Assembly: GCF_058153355.1 (NCBI RefSeq)
Contig: NZ_CM177019.1
Length of the DNA: 64,000 nucleotides
Strand: one strand, 5' to 3'
The position numbers and the translations under genes are program-made. This document shows positions 4,286 through 52,521 of the stretch, piece by piece (position 1 is the stretch's first letter; each line of letters starts with the position of its first letter). Under the pieces are notes generated by a model. It was not told where the DNA came from and ran no database searches. It saw only the letters and a list, made by a program, of their open reading frames with translations.

Positions 4286-4542
4286 TGTTCTTCCACCTTA
4301 CTTTTATTTCGTCGTTAATTACCGGGCAAGTGTTAAGCACCACTGCTGACACTTACTTGTGCTACAAATGACAAAAAGCGTAGCAGCAGACCTGCTCGGC
4401 ATAATGTAAAGATTCCAAATGATTCCAGTAATGGATTGTTATTGTTTAATATTCTAATTATTTGAAAAACATGAATTGTGAAAAATGTGACGCAGATCCC
4501 TTGTGGTGGCACTCAGAATCCCTTCCGAGCAGTCTGATGCGG

Positions 4543-4783: not shown

Positions 4784-5308
4784 TCAACAATTGATCGTCT
4801 GTGCCAGGGCGCTGCGAATTTCAGAAATCACCTGGCTGGGTTCGTTTGTTGCGTCGATGATAATATGCGCAACTTCGCGATATAGCGCATCGCGTTCTTC
4901 CAGCACTTCCTGAACTTCTTCGCTCAGCGGTTTCCCCGTTAAGGTTGGCCGTAAATCTTCTTCCGGTGCAGCTTGCAGTCGGTTAACCAGGACTGATACT
5001 GGCGCACACAAATAAACCACGATCCCGTTATTTTGCATAAAGTGACGATTAAATTCCGTCAGGATAATGCCGCCGCCCGTGGCGATAACGGTGGATGGCG
5101 CAGTTACCGCTTCCAACGCCGCCGTTTCTCTGGCGCGGAATCCCGCCCACTCTTCCCTTTCGACGATCTCCGCGACCGTCATATTGAGCTGTGATTGCAA
5201 CCACTGGTCGGTATCGACAAACCGACGGTTAAGTGAATCGGCAAGGGCCATTCCGACCGTTGTTTTACCACAGCCCCGAGGCCCGATCAGAAAAAGAGGT
5301 TGTGTCAT
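4784..5308 (-). CDS. aroL: Shikimate kinase II
   Basis: 174-aa ORF with P-loop GPRGCGKTT, recognised AroL. Confidence 0.95.
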
Positions 5309-5371
5309 CGTGGGTTTTCCCCAATAGGTCGCAATGCGGCGAAAGCCGGTGTCATGAGAATAGCGATCATA

Positions 5372-5489
5372 CCATCAAACTAGTACAATTTCGATTGTAA
5401 AGAAAAAATTCCACTTAAAGTGAAAATTTTAATACATCCCTTACTATACCAATAAATTTTCAAGAATGAAGTGTAAATAATAAATTACA
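5372..5489 (-). promoter_or_regulatory. aroL promoter/operator region with TyrR box(es) and a TrpR-like half-site
   Basis: tgtaaataataaattaca at 5472..5489 fits TGTAAA-N6-TTTACA; weaker tgtaaagaaaaaattcca at 5396..5413; ACTAGTAC at 5379..5386 resembles a trp operator half-site; aroL is known to be TyrR/TrpR regulated. Confidence 0.5.
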
Positions 5490-5490
5490 T

Positions 5491-5949
5491 TCAGCCACGA
5501 CTACGTTGCACTTCCAGCCACCACTTCTCCAGCTCCGCGGCAAAGGCCTGGCGGTCACGTTGTGAAAGGCTATCTGGTCCCCCGGTCTGGATCCCACTGG
5601 CGCGTAAGGTATCCATAAAATCGCGCATCGTCAGGCGCTCACGAATGGTCGCTGGTGTGTAACGTTCGCCGCGTGGATTAAGCGCCGCAGCGCCTTTCTC
5701 GATGGCTTCAGCAGCCAAAGGAATATCTGCGGTGATCACCAAATCGCCCGCTTCACACTGCCGGACAATTTCGTTATCGGCAACGTCGAAACCTGCCGCG
5801 ACGCGCAGCGTTCGAATAAATCGCGAAGGTGGTACGCGTAAACTCTGGTTTGCTACCAGTACCAGCGGCATCTGCATACGTTCAGCCGCGCGATACAAAA
5901 TCTCTTTAATTACATTGGGACACGCGTCGGCATCCACCCAAATTGTCAT
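5491..5949 (-). CDS. yaiI: UPF0178 protein YaiI
   Basis: ORF 5491..6069; 152-aa product from internal Met [16 protein letters not shown]... matches YaiI. Confidence 0.85.
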
Positions 5950-6068
5950 AAAGTCATCCTTTGTTGGGTAATTCTCTATTGTGTCGCGCTTTTGCCTTCC
6001 GGCATAGTTCTGTTTATGCTTCTGCCAGCGATTATCAAAACAATGAATTTCACGGCAGGAGTGAGGCA

Positions 6069-6878
6069 ATGGAAAAGAAAATCGGTTTTATTGGCTGCGG
6101 CAATATGGGAAAAGCCATTCTCGGCGGTCTGATTGCCAGCGGTCAGGTGCTTCCAGGGCAAATCTGGGTATATACCCCCTCCCCGGATAAAGTCGCCGCC
6201 CTGCATGACCAGTTCGGCATCAACGCCGCAGAATCGGCGCAGGAAGTGGCGCAAATCGCCGACATCATTTTCGCCGCCGTTAAACCGGGCATCATGATTA
6301 AAGTGCTTAGCGAAATCACCTCCAGCCTGAATAAAGACTCTCTGGTCGTTTCTATTGCTGCGGGTGTCACGCTCGACCAGCTTGCCCGCGCGCTGGGCCA
6401 TGACCGGAAAATTATCCGCGCCATGCCGAACACTCCCGCACTGGTTAATGCCGGGATGACCTCCGTAACGCCAAACGCGCTGGTAACCCCAGAAGATACC
6501 GCTGATGTGCTGAATATTTTCCGCGGCTTTGGCGAAGCGGAAGTAATTGCCGAGCCGATGATCCACCCGGTGGTCGGTGTGAGCGGTTCTTCGCCAGCCT
6601 ACGTCTTTATGTTTATCGAAGCGATGGCCGACGCCGCCGTGCTGGGCGGGATGCCACGCGCCCAGGCGTATAAATTTGCCGCTCAGGCGGTAATGGGTTC
6701 CGCAAAAATGGTGCTGGAAACGGGAGAACATCCGGGGGCACTGAAAGATATGGTCTGCTCACCGGGAGGCACCACCATTGAGGCGGTACGCGTACTGGAA
6801 GAGAAAGGCTTCCGTGCCGCAGTGATCGAAGCGATGACGAAGTGTATGGAAAAATCAGAAAAACTCAGCAAATCCTGA
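6069..6878 (+). CDS. proC: Pyrroline-5-carboxylate reductase
   Basis: ORF 5961..6878; 269-aa product from Met [20 protein letters not shown] with Rossmann motif; recognised ProC. Confidence 0.95.
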
Positions 6879-6894
6879 TGACTTTCGCCGGACG

Positions 6895-8010
6895 TCAGGC
6901 CGCCACTTCGGTGCGGTTACGTCCGGCTTTCTTTGCTTTGTAGAGCGCCAAATCTGCCGATTTCAACCACTCCCGATAGTGACTCATTTGTGGATTCAGC
7001 GGCGCGACACCCACACTAATCCGTAACATCACCTGCGGTGTATTCGGCAAACGTAACGTATTTAGCCCTTCATGTACCCGTAACATGGCGGTAATGGCGC
7101 TCTCAGCTGGCGTACCGGACATGATCACCGCAAACTCATCGCCACCAAACCGACCAATCACATCGCTACCGCGCAGGGTAATTTGTAATTGTCGGGTAAG
7201 CGCCACAATCGCTTCATCGCCCACATCATGGCCCCAGGTATCGTTGATGCTCTTGAAATGGTCGATATCGATAATCAGTAACGTCGCATCGCGGTTATGC
7301 CGCCGACAGTTATCAAATTCATTGCGTAACATAGTTTCCCAATGACGTCGGTTATACACGCCCGTCATACCGTCGCGGGTACTCATGACCTGCAACCTGC
7401 GTTTATGTTCCGCCAGTTTAGTCGCCGTCTGGTAGCTGACCCAGCCAAACAGCATAGGATAAATGACGATAATGGGAAGGGAGAGCCACCATTCCAGCGG
7501 CGCACTATTGAACGACACGGTGATACCCGTCAGTTCGAGGGTGACAAGGCAGGAAACCACCATCAACACCAGACCCGCGACAAACAGACGGGGGCCGCCT
7601 GCCCCCATCAAATTCAGACACATAATCATCAACATCGCGGTGGAAGGCAGCACGTTTACGCCCATTACGCCTACCCACATTCCCGCTAATACTGCATCGG
7701 TTTTTAAGTTATAAATTTCCCGGCTAAGCGGATCGACAGCCCTACTCGCAATCTGCCAGGCTAAATGCGGCCAGACGAACGCCCAGCCGACCAACACCAG
7801 CCACCACCAGCCCGGCGGCGGGTGCGAAACCAGCGTTGAAGCAATCGGTAAGAACATGCCAGCCAGGCCAACCGCGCGGGGTAGTCTGACGCGACGGGCG
7901 AAGCGCAGCCCGGACCGCTGATGTTCGTTTTGAGGAGTTAAAGGAGGTTCCTCCCCATGCGCCGCCGCTTTTTTGAAAAAGTTTTCATCATTCATTATTT
8001 TTGGGAACAT
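6895..8010 (-). CDS. dgcC: Diguanylate cyclase DgcC (AdrA/YaiC), membrane MASE2 + GGDEF
   Basis: 371-aa ORF with hydrophobic N-terminal half and RFGGDEFAV GGDEF motif. Confidence 0.9.
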   Translation of the reverse strand: MFPKIMNDENFFKKAAAHGEEPPLTPQNEHQRSGLRFARRVRLPRAVGLAGMFLPIASTLVSHPPPGWWWLVLVGWAFVWPHLAWQIASRAVDPLSREIYNLKTDAVLAGMWVGVMGVNVLPSTAMLMIMCLNLMGAGGPRLFVAGLVLMVVSCLVTLELTGITVSFNSAPLEWWLSLPIIVIYPMLFGWVSYQTATKLAEHKRRLQVMSTRDGMTGVYNRRHWETMLRNEFDNCRRHNRDATLLIIDIDHFKSINDTWGHDVGDEAIVALTRQLQITLRGSDVIGRFGGDEFAVIMSGTPAESAITAMLRVHEGLNTLRLPNTPQVMLRISVGVAPLNPQMSHYREWLKSADLALYKAKKAGRNRTEVAA

Positions 8011-8111
8011 TCAGAAACAATTTTCCCAAATTATAGAGACGGGGCTAAAGGCAGAAGTATGAAATTTCGGGTGAGCCATTTTCGTAGCTCACCCGTTAGC
8101 ACTATCAGGTA

Positions 8112-8432
8112 TCAGGCGGCTTTCTTGAGGCAGGCGCTCATAAACTTATTACGATCATCACCTTTCAGAGATTGTTGCGTTGCTTGATTATTACATTCGC
8201 GCATCTTTTGCTGCTGTGGCGTCAAACTTTTTTCATCAGGCGCAGACTTGCTGTTCTTCAGGCAATCACTCATGTAGGTCTTACGAGCATCCCCTTTCAA
8301 CGCCTGCGCCGTCGCCTGCTGATTACAGGAGGTCATACGCTGTTGTTGCGGGGTTAAGGTTCTCTCGGCAGCGCCGACGGTGGTTAAAAAAACCAGTCCG
8401 AAAAGCAAGGTAACCAGTAATGTTATTTTCAT
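8112..8432 (-). CDS. psiF: Phosphate starvation-inducible protein PsiF
   Basis: ORF 8112..8450; 106-aa product from MKITLLVTLLFGL... with duplicated TPQQQ.M..CN motif; immediately downstream of phoA. Confidence 0.85.
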   Translation of the reverse strand: MKITLLVTLLFGLVFLTTVGAAERTLTPQQQRMTSCNQQATAQALKGDARKTYMSDCLKNSKSAPDEKSLTPQQQKMRECNNQATQQSLKGDDRNKFMSACLKKAA

Positions 8433-8550
8433 AGCACCATCCCTCTTCATGTTTTAACCATGAGCGTTTGCGCCCGTGATTTGCCATTAAGTCTGGTTGC
8501 TAACCGCAAAAAAACCACCCGACAGCGAGAATTCACCGCCGGGCGCGGTT

Positions 8551-9966
8551 TTATTTCAGCCCCAGGGCGGCTTTCATGGTGTAGAAGAGATCGGTCTGGT
8601 CGGTCAGTCCAACGACATTGGCGGCATGTGGGCCATACGCCGCAATACGCAGCTGACTACCGGTATGTTCTTGTGAATCCTCTTCGGAGTTCCCGTAACT
8701 CATCACCATCACTGCGCCATCTTTGGTATTTAGCGCCTGGGTGAGGCCCGGCGCTTTGGTGTCCGGCGCGACAATCTGGCTGGCGTGGGCGTGATCAGCG
8801 GTGACTATGACCAGCGTGTTGCCATCCGTTTTAGCGAATTCCAGCGCCCGTTGTACGGCTTCGTCGAGATCGACCGTCTCGCCAATTTGCCCACAAGGAT
8901 TCGCAGCGTGATCCTGTTTATCGATTGATGCACCTTCAACTTGCAGGAAAAAGCCTTTCTCATTTTTACTCAACAATTCAATGGCTTTATCAGTCATCTG
9001 CGCCAGGGTCGGTACGCTGTCATTACGTTGCGGATTAGGCGTACAGGTAACGGCGGGCTTGTCGATATTGCCGTGGTACGTTGCTTTCGGTCCTTGCCAG
9101 CGCACTGGCATATTGCCGTCAGCAAACAGGCCAAGCAGGGGTTTTTGCTGGTTCGCTTCCGTCACCGCGTTCAGCGAGGCAGCATCGTTCACTAACTGAT
9201 AACCACGCACCTGCGCCTGTTCACGCAGCGTTTTTCCCTGCCATTCACCAGCGGTTGCCGTTTCCGCAAAGGTTTTTGCGCCGCCGCCAAGCGTAACATC
9301 GGCACGGGCGTTAAGCAGCTGTTCGGTAATCGATCCTTTTCCGCCTTTTTCCAGCGCGTTACCCGGACATTTTTCACTGGTCGCGCTCGGACCGTAGCAT
9401 TTGCGCGAAGTCACATGCGCCACCAACGCGGCGGGAGTGGCATCCTGCAACTCTGCGGTAGAAATGTTACCGGTCGCCAGCCCTGCGGCTTTTGCCATTT
9501 CCAGAATCGTTGGGTGATCTTTTTCATGAATATCGACACCTAATGCGCCATTATAGGTTTTGACACCGGTTGACCAGGCAGTTGCTGATGCAGCCGAGTC
9601 GGTAACGTAGTCCGGTTTGCCGGTTTTTTTATTCAGCGCATAGTGAGTGTATTGCCCGGTAAGCGGTAAGGCATCAATACCTTTAAAAAAGCCGCCCGCA
9701 CCTTCGGCATAATTACGTGCGGCAGTAATTTCCGAATCCCCCATCCCATCGCCAATCAGCAAAATAATATTTTTTGCAGGCTTATCGCTAAGAGAATCAC
9801 GCAGAGCGGCGCTCTGATCACCCGTTAAGCGGCGAGCACCGCCGGGTGCAGTAATATCGCCCTGAGCAGCCCGGTTTTCCAGAATAGGCATTTCTGGTGT
9901 CCGGGCTTTTGTCACAGGGGTAAACAGTAACGGTAAGAGTGCCAGTGCAATAGTGCTTTGTTTCAC
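8551..9966 (-). CDS. phoA: Alkaline phosphatase (GTG start)
   Basis: ORF 8551..10008; [21 protein letters not shown] signal peptide and DSAASATAW active-site region; a few residue differences from the K-12 sequence as I recall it. Confidence 0.95.
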
Positions 9967-10028
9967 TTTATTTTCTCCATGTACAAATACATTAAAAAAT
10001 AAAAACAAAGCGACTATAAGTCTCAGCC

Positions 10029-10046
10029 GTGACAGCTTTATGACAG
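10029..10046 (-). promoter_or_regulatory. Pho box (PhoB binding site) of the phoA promoter
   Basis: Minus-strand CTGTCATAAAGCTGTCAC, two direct CTGTCA(T/C) repeats about 25 bp upstream of the -10 region and ~60 bp upstream of the phoA GTG. Confidence 0.7.
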
Positions 10047-10066
10047 CTGTTGAAAAGATTACCTTT

Positions 10067-10327
10067 TTACTGACGAGGATGCTTCAATAACTTCTTTACA
10101 TAATCGCGCAGCAGCTCCGTATCGTCGTCAGGAATGCTGGCATCGGGCTTTACCTCGTAAAGTGCCCCCTCTACCTGATCAATCAACCGCTGTTGGTCAT
10201 TTTGCGCCATATTACGAAGCATTGCAGTGACGATAATCTCCAGTGCTTCTACCTGCGCGCACAGTTCTTTCGACTCTTCTTCTTTTTGGGCAAGCTTAAA
10301 TAACAACTCAGCAATGAGATTTTTCAT
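10067..10327 (-). CDS. iraP: Anti-adaptor protein IraP
   Basis: 86-aa [25 protein letters not shown]..., recognised IraP (YaiB). Confidence 0.9.
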
Positions 10328-11884: not shown

Positions 11885-11934
11885 TTTTTAAATGCCCAAT
11901 AACTGTAATTGGGCATTTAAGACTGTAAGATTGC

Positions 11935-17449: not shown

Positions 17450-20338
<2,889 letters not shown>

Positions 20339-20863
20339 TTGTCATCCCTCCTCAGGGACGTAATAAGTTGATCCATCAATTATCAATGCATAGAAAACAT
20401 ATTATGTTTCGCGTTTACGATTATGCGGCGTTATAGAGGAATGGTTCAATTATTCTTTCCCCTAAGTCCGATTGCGGACATATATAAAGCACGTGAACAC
20501 ACATAAAGAAATAAATAACAAAAACACATTATTTCAATAGGTTAATGAAAGCGCCAATTTTAAAACATAGACCATAAAAATATAAAAACACCAAACCAGA
20601 CAAATAATGTATCAATAAGCAATGAACTTTACGTTATTCACTTTTTGAAAACGTCACCAAATCCCCAAAAACAATAATCTATAGCTATAAATAAAAATTA
20701 AAAATATTTTCAATGAATATAAATTTATTGCTATTTCTATTACAAAGATGTCCTGACCTCTCATTCATTCTCTTCTTATCAACATCACGACAACTTTCGT
20801 AAAACATCCCCACCCTGCTTCAGGTATACTATGCCCCTCGATTCCACAAACATCAGGCAGACC

Positions 20864-21838
20864 ATGACAGACCTAATCCAACGCCCTCGTCGCCTGCGCA
20901 AATCTCCTGCGCTGCGCGCTATGTTTGAAGAGACAACACTTAGCCTTAACGACCTGGTGTTGCCGATCTTTGTTGAAGAAGAAATTGACGACTACAAAGC
21001 CGTTGAAGCCATGCCAGGCGTGATGCGCATTCCAGAAAAACATCTGGCACGCGAAATTGAACGTATCGCCAACGCCGGTATTCGTTCCGTGATGACTTTC
21101 GGCATCTCTCACCATACCGATGAAACCGGCAGCGATGCCTGGCGGGAAGATGGTCTGGTGGCGCGTATGTCGCGCATCTGCAAGCAGACCGTGCCAGAAA
21201 TGATCGTCATGTCAGACACCTGTTTCTGTGAATACACTTCTCACGGTCACTGCGGTGTGCTGTGTGAGCATGGCGTGGACAACGACGCGACCCTGGAAAA
21301 TTTAGGCAAGCAGGCCGTGGTTGCAGCTGCTGCAGGTGCAGACTTCATCGCCCCTTCCGCCGCAATGGATGGCCAGGTACAAGCGATTCGCCAGGCGCTG
21401 GACGCTGCGGGCTTTAAAGATACGGCGATCATGTCGTATTCGACCAAGTTCGCCTCTTCCTTTTATGGTCCGTTCCGTGAAGCTGCCGGAAGCGCATTAA
21501 AAGGCGACCGCAAAAGCTATCAGATGAACCCAATGAACCGTCGTGAGGCGATTCGTGAGTCACTGCTGGATGAAGCCCAGGGCGCGGACTGTCTGATGGT
21601 TAAACCAGCTGGAGCGTACCTCGACATCGTGCGTGAGCTGCGTGAGCGTACTGAATTGCCGATTGGTGCGTATCAGGTGAGCGGTGAGTACGCGATGATT
21701 AAGTTCGCTGCGCTGGCGGGTGCTATAGATGAAGAGAAAGTGGTGCTCGAAAGTTTAGGTTCGATTAAGCGTGCGGGTGCGGATCTGATTTTCAGCTACT
21801 TTGCGCTGGATTTGGCTGAGAAGAAGATTCTGCGTTAA
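20864..21838 (+). CDS. hemB: Porphobilinogen synthase (delta-aminolevulinate dehydratase)
   Basis: ORF 20831..21838; 324-aa product from [24 protein letters not shown]... Confidence 0.95.
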
Positions 21839-21877
21839 TGATCATTATGCCGGGTTATCCAACCCGGCATTTCCCCC

Positions 21878-22729
21878 TTACCCCGCCCGATAAAACGGTT
21901 TATCCCCAAGGATCGTCGCCCGATGCATAATCCGCCGCTGTGGCAGGTAATCCGCATTGGCATAGTGCTGAGTCACGCGGTTATCCCAAATCGCGATATC
22001 ATTTGGCTGCCAGCGCCAACGTACCTGAAACTCCGGTTTGGTGATATGGGCAAACAAAAAACCTAACAAGGCTTCGCTCTCTTTCTCGCTGACATCAACA
22101 ATTCGCGTAGTAAAGCCTTCATTCACAAACAGCGCCTGTTTACCGCTCACCGGATGCGTTCGCACCACCGGATGTAGCAACGGCGGATTTTTCGCGACCG
22201 CCTCGCGCCAGCGTTGATGCTCCTCCTCCGTTTTGCGGTATTTGTATTCCGGGAACGATTTACGGAAATCATGCTCCGCACGCAGCCCGCTCAACAGCTG
22301 GCGGAAGGGAACAGAGAGCGCCTCATAGGCCGCAATGCCGCTGGTCCAGAGCGTATCGCCGCCAGTCGAGGGTAACTCTTTCGCCGCCAGAATCGCCCCT
22401 GCGGGTGGCGTTTCAATAAATGTCACATCGGTGTGCCAGTTATCGTTATCCGGCGGATTATCGTTATGAGTATCCAGTACGATGATCTCCTCAACCCCTT
22501 CGGCATGAGGGTAAACAGGATGAATATGCAGTTCGCCAAAACGCTGGGCCAGCGCGCGTTGCTGCTGCGGTGTAATGGCTTGTTCACGCACAAATACCAC
22601 CTGATGGCGCAGTACCGCATGGTAAAGCTGTTCAAACTGATTATCGCTTAACGGACGCGTCAGGTCGGCACCCGAAATTTGTGCACCGATATACGGCCCC
22701 AGCGGGGTAATGCTCAGACGTTCACTCAT
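21878..22729 (-). CDS. tauD: Taurine dioxygenase (alpha-ketoglutarate dependent)
   Basis: 283-aa [23 protein letters not shown]... Confidence 0.95.
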
Positions 22730-23553
22730 TGTACTTCTCCATGCCAGGGCGTCAGGCGGCGCTGTAACGCGCGCAGACCCAGTTCTAAAAGAAAGGCGAT
22801 AATCGCAATCACCGCGATCCCCGCCAGCACCACGTCAGTCGCGAGAAATTCACCCGCTGACTGGACCATAAAACCCAAACCGCGCGTCGCGGCAATCAAC
22901 TCCGCCGCCACCAGGGTAGACCAGCCCACACCCAGACCAATGCGTAATCCGGTGAGGATTTCCGGCAGCGCACCGGGCAAAATAACAAACCACAGTACCT
23001 GTGTGCGGCTGGCCCCCAGCGACTGAGCGGCACGAATGCGAACCTGCTGCGCGCTTTTCACCCCCGCCAGCGCCGACATCGCCACCGGCGCAAAAATCGC
23101 TAAATAGATCAGTAAGATCTTCGAGGTTTCGCCAATACCAAACCAGATCACCATCAGCGGCAAATAAGCCAGCGGCGGCACCGGACGATAAAGCTCGATT
23201 ATCGGATCCAGAATGCCGCGCACCGTCGGGCTTAGCCCCATGGCGATCCCGACCGGAATACCGATCAACACCGCCGCGAGTAGCGCCAGCACAATGCGCG
23301 TCAGGCTGGCTGCCAGATGTTGCCACAGGGTGGCGTCCATAAATCCTTGAGGTCCGGCAATAGTGAGCAGTTTTGCCATTACCTGTTGCGGCGGCGGCAG
23401 AAACAGCGGGCTAATCAGTTGCAGCGCCGCCACCGCCCACCATACCGTGAGTAAAACCGCTAACGTGCCAATGCTTAAGGTCACCTGACGCGAGAGCGGC
23501 CAGCGCCATTTCAGCCGATGCGAATGCAGTTTTTCATTAATGAGCACACTCAT
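22726..23553 (-). CDS. tauC: Taurine ABC transporter permease
   Basis: 275-aa membrane ORF; 4-bp overlap with tauD start. Confidence 0.9.
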
Positions 23554-24317
23554 GAGAACGCCTCCCGTTGCTCAAATACGCGGCTTAAAACATATTCGCG
23601 CATGGCGATGAATTGTGGATCGGACTTGATGCTGCGGCTCGGTTCCCCGGCAACAAAGCGGCGGGCGAAGTTGAGCGGCAGGCGTTCCAGCACGCGGCCT
23701 GGGCCGGGTGAAAGCAGAACCAGTTCAGTCGCCATAAACACCGCTTCTTCTATATCGTGGGTAATCAACAGCACCTGCTTGCCCGTCTCCTGCCAGAGTT
23801 TCAGCAGCAGGGTTTGCATCTGGTCGCGGGTGAAGGCGTCCAGCGCGCCAAACGGTTCGTCGAGTAATAACAGCTGGGGATTTGCCGCCAGCGCGCGGGC
23901 AATCCCTACCCGCTGACGTTGACCGCCGGAAAGCTGCCAGATATAGCGTTTTTCTGCGCCTTCTAGCCCCACTTTTTTCAGCATCTGGTGCGCGATTTCC
24001 AGGCGCTGTACTTTCTCTACACCTGCCAGTTGCAGGCCGAATGCCACGTTGTCTACCACATTACGCCACGGCAACAGCCCTTCATTCTGAAAAACCACGC
24101 CCCGCTCTGCGCCCGGTCCCTCAATGCACTTACCCGCCAGTTGAATGCTGCCATGCTGATAAGGCACAAAACCGGCAATCAGATTCAGCAAGGTGGTTTT
24201 GCCGCAGCCAGACGGTCCCAGAACCACCAGAAGCTCGCCGCTTTCCAGCGTCAGGTTGATATCTTCCAACGCCGGTTTGCCGCCATAATCGGCGTAAAGA
24301 TGAGAGATTTGCAGCAT
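23550..24317 (-). CDS. tauB: Taurine ABC transporter ATP-binding protein
   Basis: 255-aa ORF with Walker [10 protein letters not shown] and LSGGQRQR signature; 4-bp overlap with tauC. Confidence 0.9.
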
Positions 24318-24329
24318 CTGCGCCTCCTT

Positions 24330-25292
24330 TTATTGCACGAAGCGCGAGGTCACGTACTGGCTGTAATCATTCGCCACGGCAGGGACTTTGCCCTGATCTT
24401 TCAAAAACTGCGCGGTATCGATGATCGCTTTGTTCACCGGTCCGGTCAGTTCTGCCGTTTGCTGCTGCGGTGTCAGATAGGTATTCCCCTTCACAAGCCC
24501 CGGAACGTCACCTTCCGGCACACCGCTTAAACGCGCCAGTTTGCTGATGTTTTCCGGCTGTTTCAGCCACGCGTCTGGGTTAGCAATGTACGGTTGCTGA
24601 GCATCGATGGCGCTTTTAGCGAACGCTTTCACGACTTCAGGATGTTTCTCGGCAAAATCTTTCCGCACGACCCAGACGTCCAGTGTCGGCGCGCCCCACT
24701 GCCCGACCTGTTCAGAATCGGTCAGCACCTTGCCATCTTTTTCCAGGGCGTTAACCGCCGGTGCCCAGACATAAGCACCATCAATGTCTCCCCGCTGCCA
24801 GGCGGCGATAATCGCAGGCGGCTGCAGGTTCACAATCTCCACTTGCCCGGGTTTAATGCCCCAGTGTTTCAGCGCCGCCAGCAAGCTGTAATGCGTGGTG
24901 GAGATAAACGGTACGGCAATGCGTTTGCCAATCAGATCTTCGGGTTTGCTGATGGTTTTCTTCACCACCAGCGCTTCGGAGTTACCCAGTTTTGACGCCA
25001 GCAAGAAGACTTCAATCGGCACCTGTTGGCTGGCTGCAACCGCTAATGGGCTGGAACCGAGGTTGCCGATTTGCACGTCGCCAGAAGCCAGTGCCCGCAC
25101 GATGCTGGCCCCGCTGTCAAACTTACGCCAGTCCACGGTCGCCCCGCTCTCTTTAGCAAAGGTGTTATCGGCCTGAGCCACTTTCGCCGGTTCAGCGGAG
25201 GTTTGATAGGCCACGGTGACGTTCACCGCCTGTGCCTGAAAAGCGATGAATGCCAGTGCGGCAAGAAGTGTGTTACGCGATGAAATTGCCAT
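24330..25292 (-). CDS. tauA: Taurine-binding periplasmic protein
   Basis: 320-aa ORF with signal peptide; first gene of the tau operon. Confidence 0.9.
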   Translation of the reverse strand: MAISSRNTLLAALAFIAFQAQAVNVTVAYQTSAEPAKVAQADNTFAKESGATVDWRKFDSGASIVRALASGDVQIGNLGSSPLAVAASQQVPIEVFLLASKLGNSEALVVKKTISKPEDLIGKRIAVPFISTTHYSLLAALKHWGIKPGQVEIVNLQPPAIIAAWQRGDIDGAYVWAPAVNALEKDGKVLTDSEQVGQWGAPTLDVWVVRKDFAEKHPEVVKAFAKSAIDAQQPYIANPDAWLKQPENISKLARLSGVPEGDVPGLVKGNTYLTPQQQTAELTGPVNKAIIDTAQFLKDQGKVPAVANDYSQYVTSRFVQ

Positions 25293-25520
25293 GATTGTCT
25301 GCTCCCCTGTCTTGTTATAGGAGCAGTATTTCGTTGCTGGTCAGTTTGATAAAGGAATTAAAACGTCTTGTTAAGAACAAAGCGTTTTTAGAAAAAAACT
25401 GGCAATGGTTAGCGAATATGCGCATTTTGCTATTTTTAACAAACATCGCCTGGTGCAGCGCTCACGCCTCTTATCATGCATACAAATACTGGGGCCGGAT
25501 AAATTTTATGCTCCAATGCT

Positions 25521-25572
25521 ATATACTATAGGGGGGTATGCATTGACATATAGCATACCCCCCTATAGTATA
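25521..25572. promoter_or_regulatory. FrmR operator: perfect 21-bp inverted repeat with G6/C6 tracts in the frmRAB promoter
   Basis: atatactataggggggtatgc - 11 bp spacer containing ttgacat - gcatacccccctatagtatat, 26 bp upstream of the frmR ATG; T/A-flanked G-tract sites are typical of RcnR/CsoR-family (FrmR) operators. Confidence 0.75.
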
Positions 25573-25597
25573 TTGCGTGCAGATGATGAGGTGCGAA

Positions 25598-25873
25598 ATG
25601 CCCAGTACTCCGGAAGAGAAGAAAAAGGTCCTTACTCGAGTTCGTCGTATTCGGGGGCAAATTGATGCTCTGGAACGGTCGCTGGAGGGTGATGCCGAAT
25701 GCCGTGCCATACTGCAACAGATCGCTGCCGTTCGGGGCGCGGCTAACGGGCTGATGGCAGAAGTGCTTGAAAGCCATATCCGGGAAACGTTTGACCGAAA
25801 TGACTGCTACAGCCGCGAAGTCAGCCAATCCGTTGACGACACTATTGAACTGGTTCGTGCCTATCTTAAATAG
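25598..25873 (+). CDS. frmR: Formaldehyde-responsive transcriptional repressor FrmR
   Basis: ORF 25577..25873; 91-aa product from [60 protein letters not shown] (CsoR/RcnR fold). Confidence 0.9.
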
Positions 25874-25877
25874 CTGA

Positions 25878-27017
<1,140 letters not shown>

Positions 27018-27110
27018 TTTCCCGCTGATTTTGCCTCGTCCAGTTCAGACGAGGTTCGTAATACCGTCCCCGGGCAGCCGTCCGGGGAATTAACCATGAG
27101 ATAATGGCTG

Positions 27111-27944
27111 ATGGAACTCATTGAAAAACATGCTAGCTTTGGCGGCTGGCAGAATGTATATCGGCATTATTCCCAATCACTTAATTGTGAAATGAATGTC
27201 GGGGTCTATCTCCCACCTAAAGCCGCAAGTGAAAAATTGCCAGTGCTGTACTGGCTTTCGGGCCTGACCTGTAACGAGCAGAATTTCATTACTAAATCGG
27301 GGATGCAACGTTACGCGGCTGAGCACAACATTATTGTTGTTGCGCCAGACACCAGTCCGCGAGGCAGTCATGTCGCAGATGCCGACCGTTACGATCTCGG
27401 GCAAGGTGCCGGGTTTTACCTGAACGCGACGCAAGCGCCGTGGAATGAACATTACAAAATGTATGACTATATCCGCAGCGAGCTGCCGGATTTAGTGATG
27501 CAACATTTTCCGGCAACGACCAGAAAGTCTATCTCAGGTCATTCTATGGGCGGGCTGGGCGCGCTGGTGCTGGCGTTACGTAACCCAGATGAATATGTCA
27601 GCGTCTCGGCGTTTTCGCCCATTGTCTCCCCATCGCAAGTACCGTGGGGACAGCAAGCCTTTGCCGCATATCTTGGTGAAAATAAAGATGCCTGGTTGGA
27701 TTACGATCCGGTGAGCCTTATTTCACAAGGTCAACGCGTTGCGGAAATCATGGTTGATCAGGGATTGAGTGATGATTTTTACGCAGAACAGCTGCGGACT
27801 CAAAATCTTGAAAAGATCTGCCAGGAGATGAATATCAAAACGTTAATCCGTTATCACGAGGGTTATGATCACAGCTATTATTTTGTCTCCAGTTTTATTG
27901 GCGAGCATATTGCCTACCACGCCAATAAACTGAATATGCGTTGA
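27111..27944 (+). CDS. frmB: S-formylglutathione hydrolase
   Basis: 277-aa esterase ORF with GHSMGG serine motif. Confidence 0.9.
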   Translation: MELIEKHASFGGWQNVYRHYSQSLNCEMNVGVYLPPKAASEKLPVLYWLSGLTCNEQNFITKSGMQRYAAEHNIIVVAPDTSPRGSHVADADRYDLGQGAGFYLNATQAPWNEHYKMYDYIRSELPDLVMQHFPATTRKSISGHSMGGLGALVLALRNPDEYVSVSAFSPIVSPSQVPWGQQAFAAYLGENKDAWLDYDPVSLISQGQRVAEIMVDQGLSDDFYAEQLRTQNLEKICQEMNIKTLIRYHEGYDHSYYFVSSFIGEHIAYHANKLNMR

Positions 27945-27947
27945 GCA

Positions 27948-28160
27948 TCCGCGCACGCCAGCCGGATGCGGCGTGAACGCCTTATCCGCCTACATTTCGC
28001 CCATAAACCGTAGGCATGATAAGACGCGCATAGCGTCGCATCAGGCATCTGCGCACAACTGCCGGATGCGGCGTGAACGCCTTATCCGGCCTACATTTCG
28101 CCCATGAGCCGTAGGCATGATAAGACGCGCAAAGCATCGCATCAGGCATCTGCGCACGAC
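27948..28160. repeat. BIME: two tandem ~105-bp units each containing a REP pair (frmB-yaiL intergenic)
   Basis: gccggatgcggcgtgaacgccttatccg...gtaggcatgataagacgcgc...cgcatcaggcatctgcgcac repeated twice. Confidence 0.8.
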
Positions 28161-28170
28161 TTATCTATGT

Positions 28171-28710
28171 TTACCACATCAAATCATCAGGCACTTTAAA
28201 GTCGGCATACGGATCGTCTTCATCCTGCTCTTCGGCGCTGAGCGCGCTGTGCAACACAATACTGCTGGCGTCACGCTGAGCAATTTTATCGGCAACGCTG
28301 GCGGGAATAATGGCGTATTCACCTTCGCTATTGTTATCGATCTGCAAACGTGCAATCGCCAGACGACCATTAATCAACTGCGTTTGTGTGAGCTTATCGA
28401 CAAAAATCTTCTTAATCAGATTGCCATCGGTAAAGTTAAAACCGATATCGCCATTGGCAATGGTGATCCGGTTCATTTCAATGAGCTGCTTCACCTGGGC
28501 TTTATATTCTTTCGCCAACGCCGCTTGTTTTTGCTGCTCGCTAAGCTGTTTATCACGCTCAAGCTGTGCCTTTTTATTTTCTTCTACCGCCGCCCGAGCT
28601 TCACGCGCCTGAACGCGCGATTTTTTCGCCGTTCTCTCGACCTTCGCCGCTTTTTTGCTGGTGACTAATCCTGCTTTGAGCAACTGCTCTTGTAAGGTAA
28701 GTTTTGCCAT
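28171..28710 (-). CDS. yaiL: DUF2058 protein YaiL
   Basis: ORF 28171..28722; ~179-aa product from MAKLTLQEQLLKAGLVTSKKAAK... Confidence 0.8.
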   Translation of the reverse strand: MAKLTLQEQLLKAGLVTSKKAAKVERTAKKSRVQAREARAAVEENKKAQLERDKQLSEQQKQAALAKEYKAQVKQLIEMNRITIANGDIGFNFTDGNLIKKIFVDKLTQTQLINGRLAIARLQIDNNSEGEYAIIPASVADKIAQRDASSIVLHSALSAEEQDEDDPYADFKVPDDLMW

Positions 28711-28811
28711 CTTTGTTTCCAAACCCGCTGAATAATTTTTAGCGAGTATACCTGTAAACGCCGTAGGTGTATTGGGGGCAAGTCCCTTTCGCCCCTACCT
28801 AATAAGGCGCG

Positions 28812-30023
28812 TCAGGCATCGGCGCACGGCTGCATTCGTGATCTCCGGCTCATCAAAATAAACACTGCCAGGCCAGCAACAAAAATACCCGGCGCTGAAG
28901 CGGCCATTACGCCAACCGTGCCAGTACCTAATGCCAGCATTTTCCCGGCCAGTAACGGACCGCTCATAGCCCCCAGACGCCCTACCGCCACGGCGGTTCC
29001 CACGCCGGTTGCGCGGATCTGCGAACTGTAAAACAACGGAGCCAATGCATACAAAACGCTTTGCCCACCTGTTGCAAACAACCCTGCGACGAATCCCGCC
29101 AGCAACATACCGTTAAATGATGACACCGTTCCCAGCGCTAACAGCGAAGCTAACATACCGCTATAAATCAGTAGCGACATGATCATTGGACGCAGTTTAT
29201 CCATCAAGGCGCCCAATATTAACGTCCCGCTTGCCGCCCCCATTTGTAGTGCAAACATCACCCCTGCCGCCTGCGATGGCTGGAATCCTTGTTCCACTAA
29301 AAGCAGCGGTAGCCAGTTGATCAACATGTAGACCACCAGCAAAGTGAAGAAATAACACAACCACAGCAGCAGCGTTGCGGTTGCCGTGTTGGGCGCAAAT
29401 AACGCACGCAGCGGCGGCGCAGCCTGTTTTTCGCCAGCGAACACCGCCGACTCCGGCAGCCAGCGCATTAACAGTGGCACCAGAATCAACGGCACCACAC
29501 CACCTACCCAAAACACCGTTTGCCAGGCTAAGTTTGCCCCTGCAAAACCCAGTGTCGCCGCCAGCGCCGCGCCAATGGGAACCCCGCAATACATCAGGCT
29601 CACCGCCGTTCCACGAAAACGTGGCCCCGCCGCTTCAGACGTCAGGGCGATAAGATTCGGCAACGCCGCCCCCAGCCCGACACCGGTCATCAGCCGCGCA
29701 AAGACCAGTGAGGGGAAATCCCAGGCAATAGCCGTTGCCAGCGAGAACAAACCAAACAGCGCAACTGAACCAATCAAAATGCGTTTACGACCATAACGGT
29801 CCGCCAGCATTCCGCCAACCAGCGCGCCGGGTAGCAAACCGAGTATTCCGGCACTGAATATCCAGCCCATTTGCATTTTATCGAGTGCAAAAGCCTGGGC
29901 GATGCCACCCGCCGCAATGCCAGCCGCCTGAAGATCCAGTCCTTCCATCAGAGCGACCAAAAAACAAAGCCCGACGGTCAGCATCAGGCGGGATGAAGAT
30001 GATGAAGGGGTACGAGTCGACAT
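28812..30023 (-). CDS. mhpT: 3-(3-hydroxyphenyl)propionate transporter (MFS)
   Basis: ORF 28812..30092; 403-aa product from MSTRTPSSSSSRLMLTVGLCFLV...; 12-TM MFS pattern. Confidence 0.9.
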   Translation of the reverse strand: MSTRTPSSSSSRLMLTVGLCFLVALMEGLDLQAAGIAAGGIAQAFALDKMQMGWIFSAGILGLLPGALVGGMLADRYGRKRILIGSVALFGLFSLATAIAWDFPSLVFARLMTGVGLGAALPNLIALTSEAAGPRFRGTAVSLMYCGVPIGAALAATLGFAGANLAWQTVFWVGGVVPLILVPLLMRWLPESAVFAGEKQAAPPLRALFAPNTATATLLLWLCYFFTLLVVYMLINWLPLLLVEQGFQPSQAAGVMFALQMGAASGTLILGALMDKLRPMIMSLLIYSGMLASLLALGTVSSFNGMLLAGFVAGLFATGGQSVLYALAPLFYSSQIRATGVGTAVAVGRLGAMSGPLLAGKMLALGTGTVGVMAASAPGIFVAGLAVFILMSRRSRMQPCADA

Positions 30024-30100
30024 AAGATGAACCTCGTTGCGAATGCAGGTGAATCGCGGCTGATACATTGCCAGCCGCGTAATCAAAACCATTTAATGAC

Positions 30101-30400
<300 letters not shown>

Positions 30401-30432
30401 GGATGGGTATACAAAATGCACGTTGTCAGCAG

Positions 30433-31448
30433 TCAACATGATTTGTTGTTGCACAGATCCAGCGCCACGTCGACGATCATATCCTCCTGGCCGCCGACCA
30501 TCCGGCGTTTACCCAGCTCAACGAGAATATCCACCGCGCTTAAACCATAACGCGCCGCCGCCGTTTCACAGTGACGCAAAAAGCTTGAGTAAACACCAGC
30601 GTATCCCAGCGCCAGCGTTTCGCGGTCGACACGTACCGGACGATCCTGCAACGGACGCACCAGGTCGTCAGCGGCATCCATTAACGCATAGAGATCGGTC
30701 CCATGCTGCCAGCCCAGTTTATCCGCGGCGGCAATAAACACTTCCAGCGGTGCGTTACCTGCACCCGCGCCCATCCCCGCGAGGCTAGCGTCGATGCGGT
30801 CACAGCCCTCTTCCACCGCCGCGATAGAGTTCGCCACACCAAGACTCAGGTTATGGTGAGCATGCATGCCAGTTTGCGTTTCCGGTTTGAGCACCGCTTT
30901 CAGGGCGCGGAAACGGTCACGGATATCGCTCATGTTCATCGCACCGCCAGAATCCACCACATAAATACAGGTCGCACCGTAGCCTTCCATCAGCTTTGCC
31001 TGTTTTGCGAGATTCTCTGGCGTGGTCATGTGGCTCATCATCAGAAAGCCAACGGTATCCATTCCGAGTTCGCGGGCATACTGAATATGCTGAGCGGAAA
31101 CATCAGCTTCGGTGCAGTGCGTAGCCACACGAACCACCCGCGCGCCAGCCTGCCAGGCATTTTTCAAATCGTGAATAGTGCCAATTCCTGGCAGCAATAA
31201 CGTCGCGATTTTGGCGTGCTTTACCACATCCGCCGCTGCTTCAATCCATTCAAGGTCGCTATGCGCACCGAAACCATAGTTAAAGCTGGAACCCTGCAAA
31301 CCATCGCCATGGGCCACTTCAATCGAATCCACGCGGGCATCATCCAGTGCTTTGGCAATCTGGCGGACATTTTCAAGTGAATACTGATGACGAATGGCGT
31401 GCATACCGTCACGCAACGTGACGTCCGAGATATAAAGTTTTTTACCGT

Positions 31449-31452
<4 letters not shown>
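30433..31452 (-). CDS. mhpE: 4-hydroxy-2-oxovalerate aldolase
   Basis: 339-aa [28 protein letters not shown]... Confidence 0.95.
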
Positions 31453-33214
<1,762 letters not shown>

Positions 33215-34081
33215 TTAAGCACGTGCGAGGAAATTCAGCACCAGTTGATTGAAAGCGTCGGCATGTTCCCACTGCGCCCAGTGACCACAGTCGCGAAAGA
33301 TATGCAGTTCAGAACCGGCGATGCCAGAAAGCAGACGCAGCCCTGCGTCCATCGGCACAAAACGGTCGTTACGCCCCCAGACAATCAGAGTTTGCGCTTT
33401 GATTTCCGCCAGACGTGGACCAAAATCCGGGAACTGTTTCGGATTGGCTTCCAGGCTCTTAACGAAGTTTTCCAGGTGATCGCGGCGCGACAGCATATTA
33501 TTCAGGCGCGCTTCAAACAGGACGTCGGTCAAATCGCTGGTATCGAAAACGAAGATATCCATCATCAGCTTCAGATTTTCGATAGTCGGCTGGCGATAAA
33601 GCTGATTCAGTCGCTTAATGCCTTCAGTTGGCATCGGCGTAAACAAACTCATGCCACCTGTACCGCCGCCCATCAGCACCAGTTTGCCGACGCGCTCCGG
33701 CCAGTTAAGGGTGAACGCCACAGAACTGTGGCCGCCCATCGAGTTGCCCAGCAGGTGGATTTTGGCGATATCCAGTTGATCCACCACACTTTTCAGGATG
33801 CGCGCATTGAGATCCGATCGCGAACCACTGTTAACAATCGAATCGCTCTTACCCCAACCAGGACAATCCAGCAGGATCACCCGATAACCAGCTTCTACCA
33901 GCGGATCGATATTGCGGCTGAAGTTCGCCCAGCCCGTAGCCCCCGGGCCGGAGCCGTGCAGCAGGACAACGGTTTCGTCGCCTTGACCGCAGTCATTAAA
34001 ATGGATGCGCAGCGTTTTACCCGCTTCTTCTACATTCAGAAAACGGCTGGTGGCGGCTTCGGTTTGTGGCTGATAACTCAT
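33215..34081 (-). CDS. mhpC: 2-hydroxy-6-oxononadienedioate hydrolase (alpha/beta hydrolase)
   Basis: ORF 33215..34144; 288-aa product from [22 protein letters not shown]... with GNSMGG nucleophile elbow. Confidence 0.9.
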
Positions 34082-37835: not shown

Positions 37836-38624
37836 GTGGAGCAAATCATGAAAATTACTCAAATTCGTAATGCCACCCAAATTATCCAATACGCTGGCAA
37901 AACATTTCTTATTGACCCGTTACTCGCGCCTAAAGGAAGTTATCCGGGTTTTGCCGGAACGGCACGCGCAGAAATCCGCAATCCAACGGTAGAATTACCG
38001 TGCGATTTAACAACGTTACTCAACGTTGACGCCCTAATAGTGACCCATTTGCATGAAGATCACTGGGACGAAACAGCCTCCCGCGTCGTCCCCAAAGATA
38101 AACAGATTTATGTGCAAAATGAGCAAGATGCTGAATCACTGCATAAACAAGGATTTACGCATCTTACCGTACTTGCCGACGAGACTAAATTTGGCGATAT
38201 TACTCTGCATAAAACGACAGGGCAGCACGGCTCCGATCGCACCTATGCAGACCCGGCTATGGCGAAGCGTTTAGGCGCAGCCTGCGGCGTTGTTTTCCAG
38301 CACCCGACAGAGAAAACGCTCTATCTGGCTGGCGATACCCTCTGGCGTGATGACGTCGAGGCTACAATGCTAACTTTCCAACCAGAAGTGGTGGTGTTGA
38401 ATGCCGGATTTGCGCATGTTCTGGGGCATGGCGCGATAATTATGGGAGCTGAAGATATTCTCAAAACACATTTCACCCTGCCAGAAGCGCAAATTGTCGC
38501 GACACATATGGAGGCCGTAAACCACTGTTTGCTGACGCGTGATGCTCTCAAGGAATACGCCAGAGATAATCAAATTATCGAATTTGTGAACGTACCAGAA
38601 GATGGTGAAACGTTGACATTCTAA
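37836..38624 (+). CDS. Metallo-beta-lactamase-fold hydrolase (accessory, function unknown)
   Basis: 262-aa ORF with THLHEDHWD (HxHxDH) zinc-binding motif; lies between mhpR and lacI. Confidence 0.7.
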   Translation: MEQIMKITQIRNATQIIQYAGKTFLIDPLLAPKGSYPGFAGTARAEIRNPTVELPCDLTTLLNVDALIVTHLHEDHWDETASRVVPKDKQIYVQNEQDAESLHKQGFTHLTVLADETKFGDITLHKTTGQHGSDRTYADPAMAKRLGAACGVVFQHPTEKTLYLAGDTLWRDDVEATMLTFQPEVVVLNAGFAHVLGHGAIIMGAEDILKTHFTLPEAQIVATHMEAVNHCLLTRDALKEYARDNQIIEFVNVPEDGETLTF

Positions 38625-38643: not shown

Positions 38644-39597
38644 ATGCGCCCGCTAACTGTTGCCATTATCGCCGTTGCCGGTTTTAGTCCTTTTCACCTT
38701 TCCGTACCGTTTATCGTGTTTAGCGAAAAAATGGCGGAGAAAAAACGCTTTCATGTAATTATCTGCGCTGAAAAGCCGGGAAATGTGGACTCTGCCGATG
38801 GGTTTTCCGTAACCGCCACCCATGACTATACGGCAGTCATCCAGGCGGATATTGTGATAATTCCTTACTGGGGAACAATTACACAAAAACCGCCACAAAA
38901 ACTGCTGGAAGCCTTAACGACCGCACGAGATAACGGGGCACAGATTGTCGGGCTTTGCCTGGGCACGTTTGTGCTCGGCTATGCAGGTTTACTGAACAAT
39001 AAGCGTGCTGCCACGCACTGGGAGTTCGAGCGTGAATTTCAGGCACGTTTTCCACAAACACATCTGGATATTAACGCGTTGTATGTAGACGATGATGGCA
39101 TTATTACCTCTGCCGGTACTGCCGCGGCGCTGGATTGCTGTTTGTATATTGTTCGGCAACATTTTGGCAGCGACTATGCTAACCATATTGCCCGACGGAT
39201 GGTCGTACCGCCATATCGCACCGGCGGTCAGGCGCAGTTTATAGAGCAACCGGTGCCGAAAAATACCCATGATGAACGCATTAACCTCCTGCTGGATTAC
39301 CTGCGGCAAAACATTACGCAACAGCATGATCTCGACTCGCTGGCTCAGCAAGTAATGATGAGTCGCCGCACACTAACCCGTCATTTTATGAAAGCGACCG
39401 GTTCGAGTATCGCCGAATGGCTCATCACTGAACGCTTACGCCGTAGCCAGGAACTGTTGGGATCCAGTCAGTTGCCCGTTGAGCGGATAGCGGCTGAGGT
39501 GGGTTTTCTCTCACCTGTGACCTGGCGTCAGCATTTTAAATCTCACTTCGGCGTCAGCCCCGCAGAATGGCGCAAAACCTTTCGTGGTATGGCATGA
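38644..39597 (+). CDS. GlxA-family transcriptional regulator (DJ-1/PfpI-like N-domain + AraC-type HTH)
   Basis: 317-aa ORF; N-terminal GLCLGTFVLG nucleophile-elbow-like region, C-terminal AraC HTH (RRTLTRHFMKATGSSIAEWLITERLRRSQELL...); 19 bp after the MBL gene. Confidence 0.7.
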   Translation: MRPLTVAIIAVAGFSPFHLSVPFIVFSEKMAEKKRFHVIICAEKPGNVDSADGFSVTATHDYTAVIQADIVIIPYWGTITQKPPQKLLEALTTARDNGAQIVGLCLGTFVLGYAGLLNNKRAATHWEFEREFQARFPQTHLDINALYVDDDGIITSAGTAAALDCCLYIVRQHFGSDYANHIARRMVVPPYRTGGQAQFIEQPVPKNTHDERINLLLDYLRQNITQQHDLDSLAQQVMMSRRTLTRHFMKATGSSIAEWLITERLRRSQELLGSSQLPVERIAAEVGFLSPVTWRQHFKSHFGVSPAEWRKTFRGMA

Positions 39598-52157: not shown

Positions 52158-52515
52158 ACGCATGATAAGACACGCCTGCGTTGCATCAGGCATTGGTGCA
52201 CGGTGTCGGATGCGGCGCGTGCGCCTTATCCGACCTACGGTTCAGGCCTGTAGGCATGATAAGACGCGTCAGCGTCGCATCAGGCATCTGCGCACGGTGT
52301 CGGATGCGCCGCGTGCGCCTTATCCGACCTACGGTTCAGGCCTGTAGGCATGATAAGACGCGCCTGCGTTGCATCAGGCATCTACGCATAGCTGTCGGAT
52401 GCGGCGCGGGCGCCTTATCCGACCTGCGGTTCAGGCCTGTAGGCATGATAAGACGCGTCAGCGTCGCATCAGGCATTGGTGCACGGTGTCGGATGCGCCA
52501 CAAGACACATCCGAC
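52158..52515. repeat. BIME: about four tandem ~90-bp REP-containing units between codB and prpE
   Basis: Repeated ...gcatgataagacgcg(t/c)c(a/t)gcg(t/c)(c/t)gcatcaggcat...tgtcggatgcg(g/c)cgcgtgcgccttatccgacctacggttcaggcctgtag... Confidence 0.85.
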
Positions 52516-52521
52516 AACACC

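Follow-up and report, generated by a model that had tools for sequence, protein, structure and literature searches.

A compact tauA–frmR junction in Escherichia: a putative FrmR operator at a variable spot

Layout of the tauA–frmR junction

In the 64,000-bp stretch of DNA analysed here (the window), the divergently transcribed genes tauA and frmR are separated by a short interval that holds a long palindrome, while in E. coli K-12 a block of additional genes lies between them. This raises the questions of whether the window lost these genes or never had them, and of what the palindrome represents. We consider it very likely that the interval is an island-free, probably ancestral, divergent control region for tauABCD and frmRAB, and that its palindrome is the known FrmR operator.

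The flanking genes were identified first from the open reading frames. tauA (24330–25292, minus strand) encodes a 320-aa taurine ABC transporter substrate-binding protein, as judged from the ORF list, its Pfam OpuAC/NMT1 match and colinear annotated genomes, and is the first gene of tauABCD (21878–25292, minus strand). On the other side, frmR (25598–25873, plus strand) encodes a 91-aa formaldehyde-responsive repressor and is followed on the same strand by two Pfrm-controlled detoxification genes, frmA (25908–27017) and the esterase gene frmB/fghA (27111–27944), both assigned from the ORF list, Pfam and an annotated relative. The products of tauA, frmR, frmA and frmB/fghA all matched the expected Pfam families, with that of frmR scoring 82 bits against PF02583 (cutoff 22.8). 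In addition, protein comparison found FrmR identical to K-12 FrmR, and the two neighbours are named tauA and frmR in the nearest annotated genome, all of which bears out the gene names given in a preliminary description of this DNA. The FrmR translation contains Pro2, Cys35 and His60, which, together with the frmA and esterase genes downstream, places it in the formaldehyde-sensing subgroup of DUF156. Since the tauA start codon occupies 25290–25292 (as its reverse complement) and the frmR ATG begins at 25598, the intergenic region spans 25293–25597, or 305 bp, in agreement with the earlier estimate of about 300 bp.

Read from tauA towards frmR, this region would comprise the tauA leader, a tauA regulatory region, a degenerate REP-like element and the frmRAB promoter. 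The leader and ribosome-binding region (25293–25333, minus strand) was delimited by aligning nine tauA upstream regions, in which near-identity across all nine, K-12 included, is confined to the 41 bp adjoining the start codon. The adjoining regulatory region (25334–25443, minus strand) represents an allele that we call type 1, common to ST131, O157, E. albertii and Escherichia sp. E1V33, and is followed by a single degenerate REP-like element (25444–25487, plus strand) between the two divergent promoters. Comparison with the K-12-type and O157-type loci placed the upstream edge of a conserved Pfrm block at 25495–25520 (plus strand), next to the palindrome. The frmR Shine-Dalgarno sequence GAGG (25588–25591, plus strand) was read from the sequence 6 nt before the ATG, and the GTGAGGT at this ribosome-binding region is kept in other genera.

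Alternative states of the tauA–frmR interval

Alignment with K-12 MG1655 gave a frmR–tauA interval of 5,350 bp, rather than the same ~300-bp junction, containing yaiO, yaiX::IS2, yaiP, ykiC and yaiS, with yaiX being a transferase/acetyltransferase gene split by IS2. The content given for K-12 in the preliminary description (yaiO, an IS-disrupted yaiX, yaiP and yaiS) was thus recovered. Homology between the window and K-12 stops at 25330 on the tauA side and is back at 25495 on the frmR side. At the same position O157:H7 EC4115 has a different, 8,254-bp block, with genes for a response regulator, a MASE1 histidine kinase and a UhpC-like sensor/transporter as well as three for an ABC transporter (EC4115 locus L004, 9796–17588). 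The window matches the O157-type locus from ~25506 by megablast, with weaker likeness back to ~25495, leaving an unmatched stretch at 25437–25505.

Among 5,426 complete E. coli genomes, the compact junction was present in one piece in 595, a set that takes in O25b:H4-ST131 genomes, and the O157-type block in 520, while 4,291–4,364 (~79%) had the K-12-type tauA upstream allele; the three counts total about 5,426. This allele was used to count the K-12-type state in place of yaiO, which is found in 4,927 of these genomes and overcounts the state, as some strains have the cassette at a second chromosomal site. In E. coli Ecol_743 (L085), a cassette of yaiO, an acetyltransferase gene, yaiP and a PIG-L deacetylase gene occupies such a second site (6999–10205, ~95% identity) and adjoins IS66 and ISL3 remnants, suggesting that the cassette has moved as a unit.

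Site-specific genomic islands are marked by an integrase gene, a tRNA or att target and flanking direct repeats. The annotation of the K-12 and O157 intervals lists no integrase, and neither a tRNA gene nor a direct-repeat scar was seen there. The only mobile gene is the IS2 inside K-12 yaiX, which is absent from the corresponding E. whittamii block, and the block boundaries are zones of fading similarity rather than sharp repeats, which sets the blocks apart from islands inserted by a site-specific integrase. Unlike an insertion of that type, the K-12-type block with its diverged tauA upstream region looks more like a replacement by homologous recombination in the flanks. The locus does resemble the variable spots of the E. 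coli pangenome, where one position likewise bears alternative unrelated blocks, or none, between conserved flanks. Three states are common at this ordinary variable spot, the compact junction among them, and presence or absence of a gene block is routine in the E. coli pangenome. A keyword search of the literature on yaiO, yaiP and yaiS returned incidental mentions only and no description of the tauA–frmR spot. In the scheme that we propose, the REP-containing middle of the spacer would have been replaced in most E. coli by one of two unrelated islands, neither of which would have touched the operator.

The aligned tauA upstream regions fell into two alleles. Type 1 was found in the window, its nearest relative R32_14_1F, ST131, O157, E. 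albertii and E1V33, and type 2 in K-12, strain DE17 and E. whittamii, all three of which have a yaiO-type block; type 2 was seen only alongside such a block. A 164-bp mid-junction megablast gives a lower bound for the type 1 allele, as O157-type genomes share no 28-nt exact word with it. The two types have a weak likeness in the short blocks CTAATTC-TTT, TTTTTT-CTAA-AA and AA-TGC (window 25334–25443 versus K-12 L001 7504–7692), which may be promoter and activator (Cbl/CysB) sites. A full-text literature search for Cbl/CysB sites at tauA yielded no usable map.

REP elements are imperfect palindromes of ~35–40 nt that occur in dispersed copies with a conserved ...CTTATC-GCCTAC tail. The REP-like element of the junction is identical at 36 of 44 positions to the REP copy at 30160–30203 (within the array at 30116–30399), and also matches REP copies near 52160–52540. 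Its 5' half is degenerate and its stem weak in the window; the E. albertii version (41/46 identity) folds better (−13.6 versus −7.1 kcal/mol). The element is present at the empty site in all compact alleles. This stretch has no counterpart in K-12, and in the O157-type locus no megablast match was obtained, with a weak similarity somewhat further to the tauA side. REPs usually come after genes, and a position between divergent promoters is unusual; the element could be the scar of something lost. Elsewhere in the window, REP/BIME-type arrays with a 101-bp period were found after frmB (27945–28161, 2.2 copies) and between mhpT and mhpE (30116–30399, 2.8 copies), with further copies near 52.2–52.5 kb.

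To place the compact form in time, we turned to related species. The E. albertii type strain has a colinear 305-bp junction with 89% identity (tauA 88%), and Escherichia sp. E1V33 one with 94.8% identity (tauA 94%); in the ST131 genome S103EC and R32_14_1F its length is likewise 305 bp. Escherichia sp. MOD1-EC7003 was left out of this typing, its contig ending 422 bp upstream of frmR. The colinear junctions of the two outgroup genomes suggest that the compact form is probably the ancestral empty site rather than a deletion, with the blocks as later arrivals. The K-12-type block is also found at the same site in E. whittamii, without IS2 and with 89–92% identity, indicating that this island is old too and that the polymorphism crosses species; loss, or allele exchange by recombination, is accordingly possible at this locus. 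The preliminary description had proposed that the strain either never acquired the K-12 block or has lost it. The block is indeed absent, and of the two routes the first is the better supported, as E. albertii and E1V33 share the 305-bp junction.

Under the second route, the compact junction would be derived, an ancestor having possessed the yaiO–yaiS block or another island that later disappeared through a deletion, or through recombination with an empty allele, and the REP would be what remained. The age of the K-12-type island, seen in E. whittamii and in ~79% of E. coli, speaks for such a loss, as does the atypical position of the REP, which may be where a lost gene once had its 3' end. 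Erosion also happens: the closest relative on the frmR side (99.3%) has a yaiO-type island in decay, its yaiO frameshifted and its yaiS truncated. However, no remnant of either island was found in the window, and the same 305 bp are colinear over their whole length in E. albertii, E1V33, ST131 and the window, with a divergence that follows that of tauA. Since independent deletions would not recreate one sequence, this shared junction counts against loss, and the tauA upstream allele of the compact genomes is moreover type 1, whereas type 2 goes with the yaiO island. We therefore regard a derived origin as improbable and retain the ancestral empty site as our reading of the compact junction.

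A broader proposal, which we put forward tentatively and hold to be doubtful, is that the tauA–frmR spacer is a REP-centred replacement hot spot across species, where at least two unrelated islands displaced the REP and the K-12-type block brought a weakly similar tauA upstream region with it. The islands in question would be the four-gene yaiO-yaiX-yaiP-yaiS envelope cassette and the 8-kb island with the two-component system, UhpC-like and ABC transporter genes. If this were true, the K-12 tauABCD promoter would not be that of ~20% of E. coli (ST131, O157 and the window strain). In compact strains, moreover, the 305 bp would hold tauA control, the REP and the FrmR operator together, and control by sulfur starvation and by formaldehyde could then disturb one another.

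The palindrome and the FrmR operator

The palindrome is a perfect inverted repeat with a left arm at 25521–25541 (ATATACTATAGGGGGGTATGC), a right arm at 25553–25573 (GCATACCCCCCTATAGTATAT) and an 11-nt spacer (ATTGACATATA); its arms reach 24 nt at 96% identity. The preliminary description had reported a perfect 21-bp repeat at 25521–25572; the 21-nt arms are indeed perfect, but the repeat ends one base further, at 25573. It had also noted G6 and C6 tracts and a ttgaca in the spacer, which we located at 25531–25536, 25558–25563 and 25543–25548, respectively. This is the sole close-range inverted repeat with arms of at least 20 nt in all 64 kb, where ~1e-6 such repeats would be expected by chance (64,000 x 80 x 4^-21).

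Each arm holds one candidate FrmR site, as such sites were defined by Denby et al. (2016, PMC5146963). Site 1 (25523–25539, ATAC-TATAGGGGG-GTAT) and its mirror image, site 2 (25555–25571, ATAC-CCCCCTATA-GTAT), both consist of ATAC, a 9-bp G/C-rich tract and GTAT, and their centres are 32 bp apart. Mirror sites flanked by ATAC and GTAT around G6/C6 tracts are the sequence hallmark of type I operators of the CsoR/RcnR family (DUF156). The large inverted repeat in E. coli Pfrm has been described as tandem type I FrmR sites (Denby et al. 2016, Sci Rep 6:38879, PMC5146963), and the correspondence with that operator supports the earlier proposal that the palindrome is an RcnR/CsoR-type site for FrmR autoregulation. 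The sequence evidence thus supports identifying the palindrome as the published type I FrmR operator.

The same promoter in K-12 agrees with the window in locus, in having two ATAC/GTAT-flanked G/C-rich sites around the −35 element and in its identical FrmR, and 52 of 53 bases are the same. The one difference, at 25554, is an A in K-12 and a C in the window, such that the arms are perfect over 19 nt in the former versus 21 nt in the latter. Upstream of 25495 the two are wholly different, with the yaiO–yaiS block lying there in K-12. The Salmonella Typhimurium promoter frmRAPro (Osman et al. 2015/2016, PMC5016687) likewise combines a G/C tract with a T/A-rich inverted repeat on either side of it; two FrmR tetramers bind there, and binding requires the repeat. 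It differs in having a single C6 tract as described, and frmB is absent from Salmonella (Osman et al., PMC5016687). The E. coli RcnR operator in the rcnR–rcnA intergenic region (Iwig & Chivers 2009, as cited by Denby et al. 2016) is described as having tandem type I sites, TACT-G6-N-AGTA, for a repressor of the same family. As at Pfrm, one tetramer is described per site; the effector is Ni/Co, the regulator is another one, and the repeat is TACT/AGTA versus ATAC/GTAT.

A promoter scan predicted a Pfrm −35 hexamer, TTGACA, in the spacer between the two FrmR sites (25543–25548, plus strand) and a −10 hexamer, TAGTAT, inside site 2 (25566–25571, plus strand), matching at 10 of 12 positions with a 17-nt spacer between them. 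The −35 and −10 elements and the transcription start are consensus predictions, as is the start site of Denby et al., and the frmR start is predicted near 25576–25578. In the published description the repeat centre is at −29 from the predicted start of E. coli Pfrm (Denby et al. 2016, PMC5146963); counting 29 from the centre at 25547 puts the start near 25576, consistent with that description. The end of the right arm is 24 bp from the frmR ATG, and the operator overlaps the predicted core promoter of this DUF156-repressor operon. With the −35 element between the sites and the −10 element inside site 2, occupied sites would, from their position, be expected to block RNA polymerase.

Binding by FrmR has been characterised for the homologous promoters. 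The FrmR–Pfrm complex has a Kd of ~220 nM and dissociates faster in formaldehyde (Denby et al. 2016, PMC5146963), while the Salmonella frmRA operator takes two FrmR tetramers and loses binding when one T/A-rich repeat is mutated (Osman et al. 2016, PMC5016687). Pro2 and Cys35 are the sensory residues of FrmR (Osman et al., PMC5016687; Denby et al., PMC5146963). By analogy, we infer that the window allele acts like the K-12 and Salmonella promoters on which binding and the formaldehyde response were measured. One FrmR tetramer on each site would block RNA polymerase; formaldehyde would cross-link Pro2 to Cys35 and take FrmR off the DNA; and this release would allow frmR, frmA and frmB to be transcribed. 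The operator, the repressor and the formaldehyde mechanism have already been published, and Pfrm/FrmR is already in use as a formaldehyde biosensor.

We next examined how widely the palindrome is conserved. Its exact 53-bp form is present in 3,554 of the 5,426 complete E. coli genomes, counted with the palindrome alone, as a 71-bp query conflated flank and operator differences. The perfect 21-nt repeat is therefore the norm and not special to the window strain, and neither the operator nor its perfect 21 bp is a feature peculiar to that strain. It is K-12 that has a minority, one-base variant of the species-typical perfect palindrome, a point of relevance to Pfrm engineering.

Beyond Escherichia, with the regions upstream of FrmR orthologues taken from one genome per species, the same two-site layout was found in most of the closest orthologues (Pantoea, Edwardsiella, Enterobacter, Providencia, Aeromonas, Serratia and Morganella). 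A comparable long repeat was not found upstream of the orthologues in Citrobacter, Klebsiella, Maribrevibacterium or Erwinia, and in Tatumella (ATACTATA-N6-TATAGTAT) and some Pasteurellaceae just one site is present, without a long hairpin. A MAFFT alignment of 14 sequences, from Escherichia, Pantoea, Edwardsiella, Providencia, Aeromonas, Serratia and Morganella plus a plasmid, showed 17-nt cores that are mirror-symmetric across eight or more genera. Here 90.5% of cells pair, versus 21–58% when the register is slid; these percentages are not probabilities, and several of the sequences are close kin, the plasmid-type ones among them. Ten core pairs and the TTGA of the −35 element are invariant among the 14 sequences, and two tract positions covary across the arms (T:A versus G:C and A:T versus G:C). 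The two innermost stem pairs, which extend the repeat from 19 to 21 nt, are unpaired in 5–7 of the 14, that is, paired in about half. On sequence grounds, this pattern accords with a symmetric protein that reads two equivalent sites, and not with selection for stem length.

Cassettes of the type frmR-frmA(-VOC)-fghA on plasmids and in other genera (an Edwardsiella plasmid, L012; Enterobacter, L014; Morganella, L022; and the E. coli plasmid p7CC-fosA3, L089) have, as in the window, two mirror 17-nt sites with TTGAC between them and TATAGT within the right-hand site, at an equal distance from operator to start codon. They differ from the window in that the tract is GTGGAG/CTCCAC rather than G6/C6, FrmR is ~90% identical, and the spacer is longer by 2 bp, which puts the site centres 34 versus 32 bp apart. 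On p7CC-fosA3 the frmR-frmA-VOC-fghA cassette (5080–7835) lies beside a recombinase and a Tn3 transposase gene; operators near-identical to its own occur in Enterobacter and Morganella, and the cassette of the Edwardsiella plasmid is comparable.

That the palindrome works mainly through DNA or RNA structure, as a cruciform, a hairpin terminator or insulator, or an attachment or recombination site for the islands, is highly improbable: when single-stranded, the DNA does fold into a very stable hairpin (−23.8 kcal/mol, z = −8.2 versus shuffles) and the island boundaries are only ~25 bp away, but no T-run follows either arm and a terminator scan was negative, the repeat lies almost wholly upstream of the predicted transcription start and hence outside the frm transcript, it does not differ between the three locus states and so is not part of the inserted DNA, it goes along with frmR on plasmids and in other genera irrespective of the adjacent genes, the single site of Tatumella and Pasteurellaceae comes without a long hairpin, and the conserved parts are the ATAC/GTAT and TATAG motifs rather than the stem itself, whose innermost pairs vary as noted above. 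The only two Rfam matches, to microRNA-precursor hairpins, obtained for 25000–26000 at a permissive threshold, scored 27 and 21 bits against gathering cutoffs of 90 and 100 and were set aside as generic hairpins.

Significance and other observations in the window

To the published operator and its mechanism, the present analysis adds the frequencies of the three locus states, the outgroup evidence for an ancestral empty site, the REP-like element and the linkage between the K-12-type block and a diverged tauA allele. The sequence upstream of tauA in K-12 is a diverged allele that goes together with the yaiO–yaiS block, and regulatory maps of tauABCD made in K-12 may therefore not transfer to ST131, O157 and similar strains.

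Among the 5,426 complete E. coli genomes, the best match to the window, tested on 20000–34000, was goat strain R32_14_1F at ~98%, with the next at ~96%. This suggests that the lineage of the window is poorly represented among complete E. coli genomes, and possibly belongs to a divergent or cryptic-clade-like Escherichia.

Two ORFs between mhpR and lacI (37836–38624 and 38644–39597) correspond to an MBL-fold hydrolase and a GlxA-family regulator in the colinear R32_14_1F annotation. Strain DE17 has a GlxA pseudogene fragment only at this position, and K-12 presumably has nothing between mhpR and lacI, such that the pair looks like another presence/absence difference. Within the ORF at 17450–20338 (minus strand), which encodes a 962-aa EhaB-like autotransporter, the central segment 18919–20244 went unmatched by megablast in the nearest genome, which is colinear elsewhere; this suggests that part of the passenger domain is divergent. 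Finally, a 16-nt inverted repeat at 11888–11920 (94%, 1-nt loop), which colinearity with R32_14_1F places just 3' of ddlA, probably forms a terminator-like hairpin.
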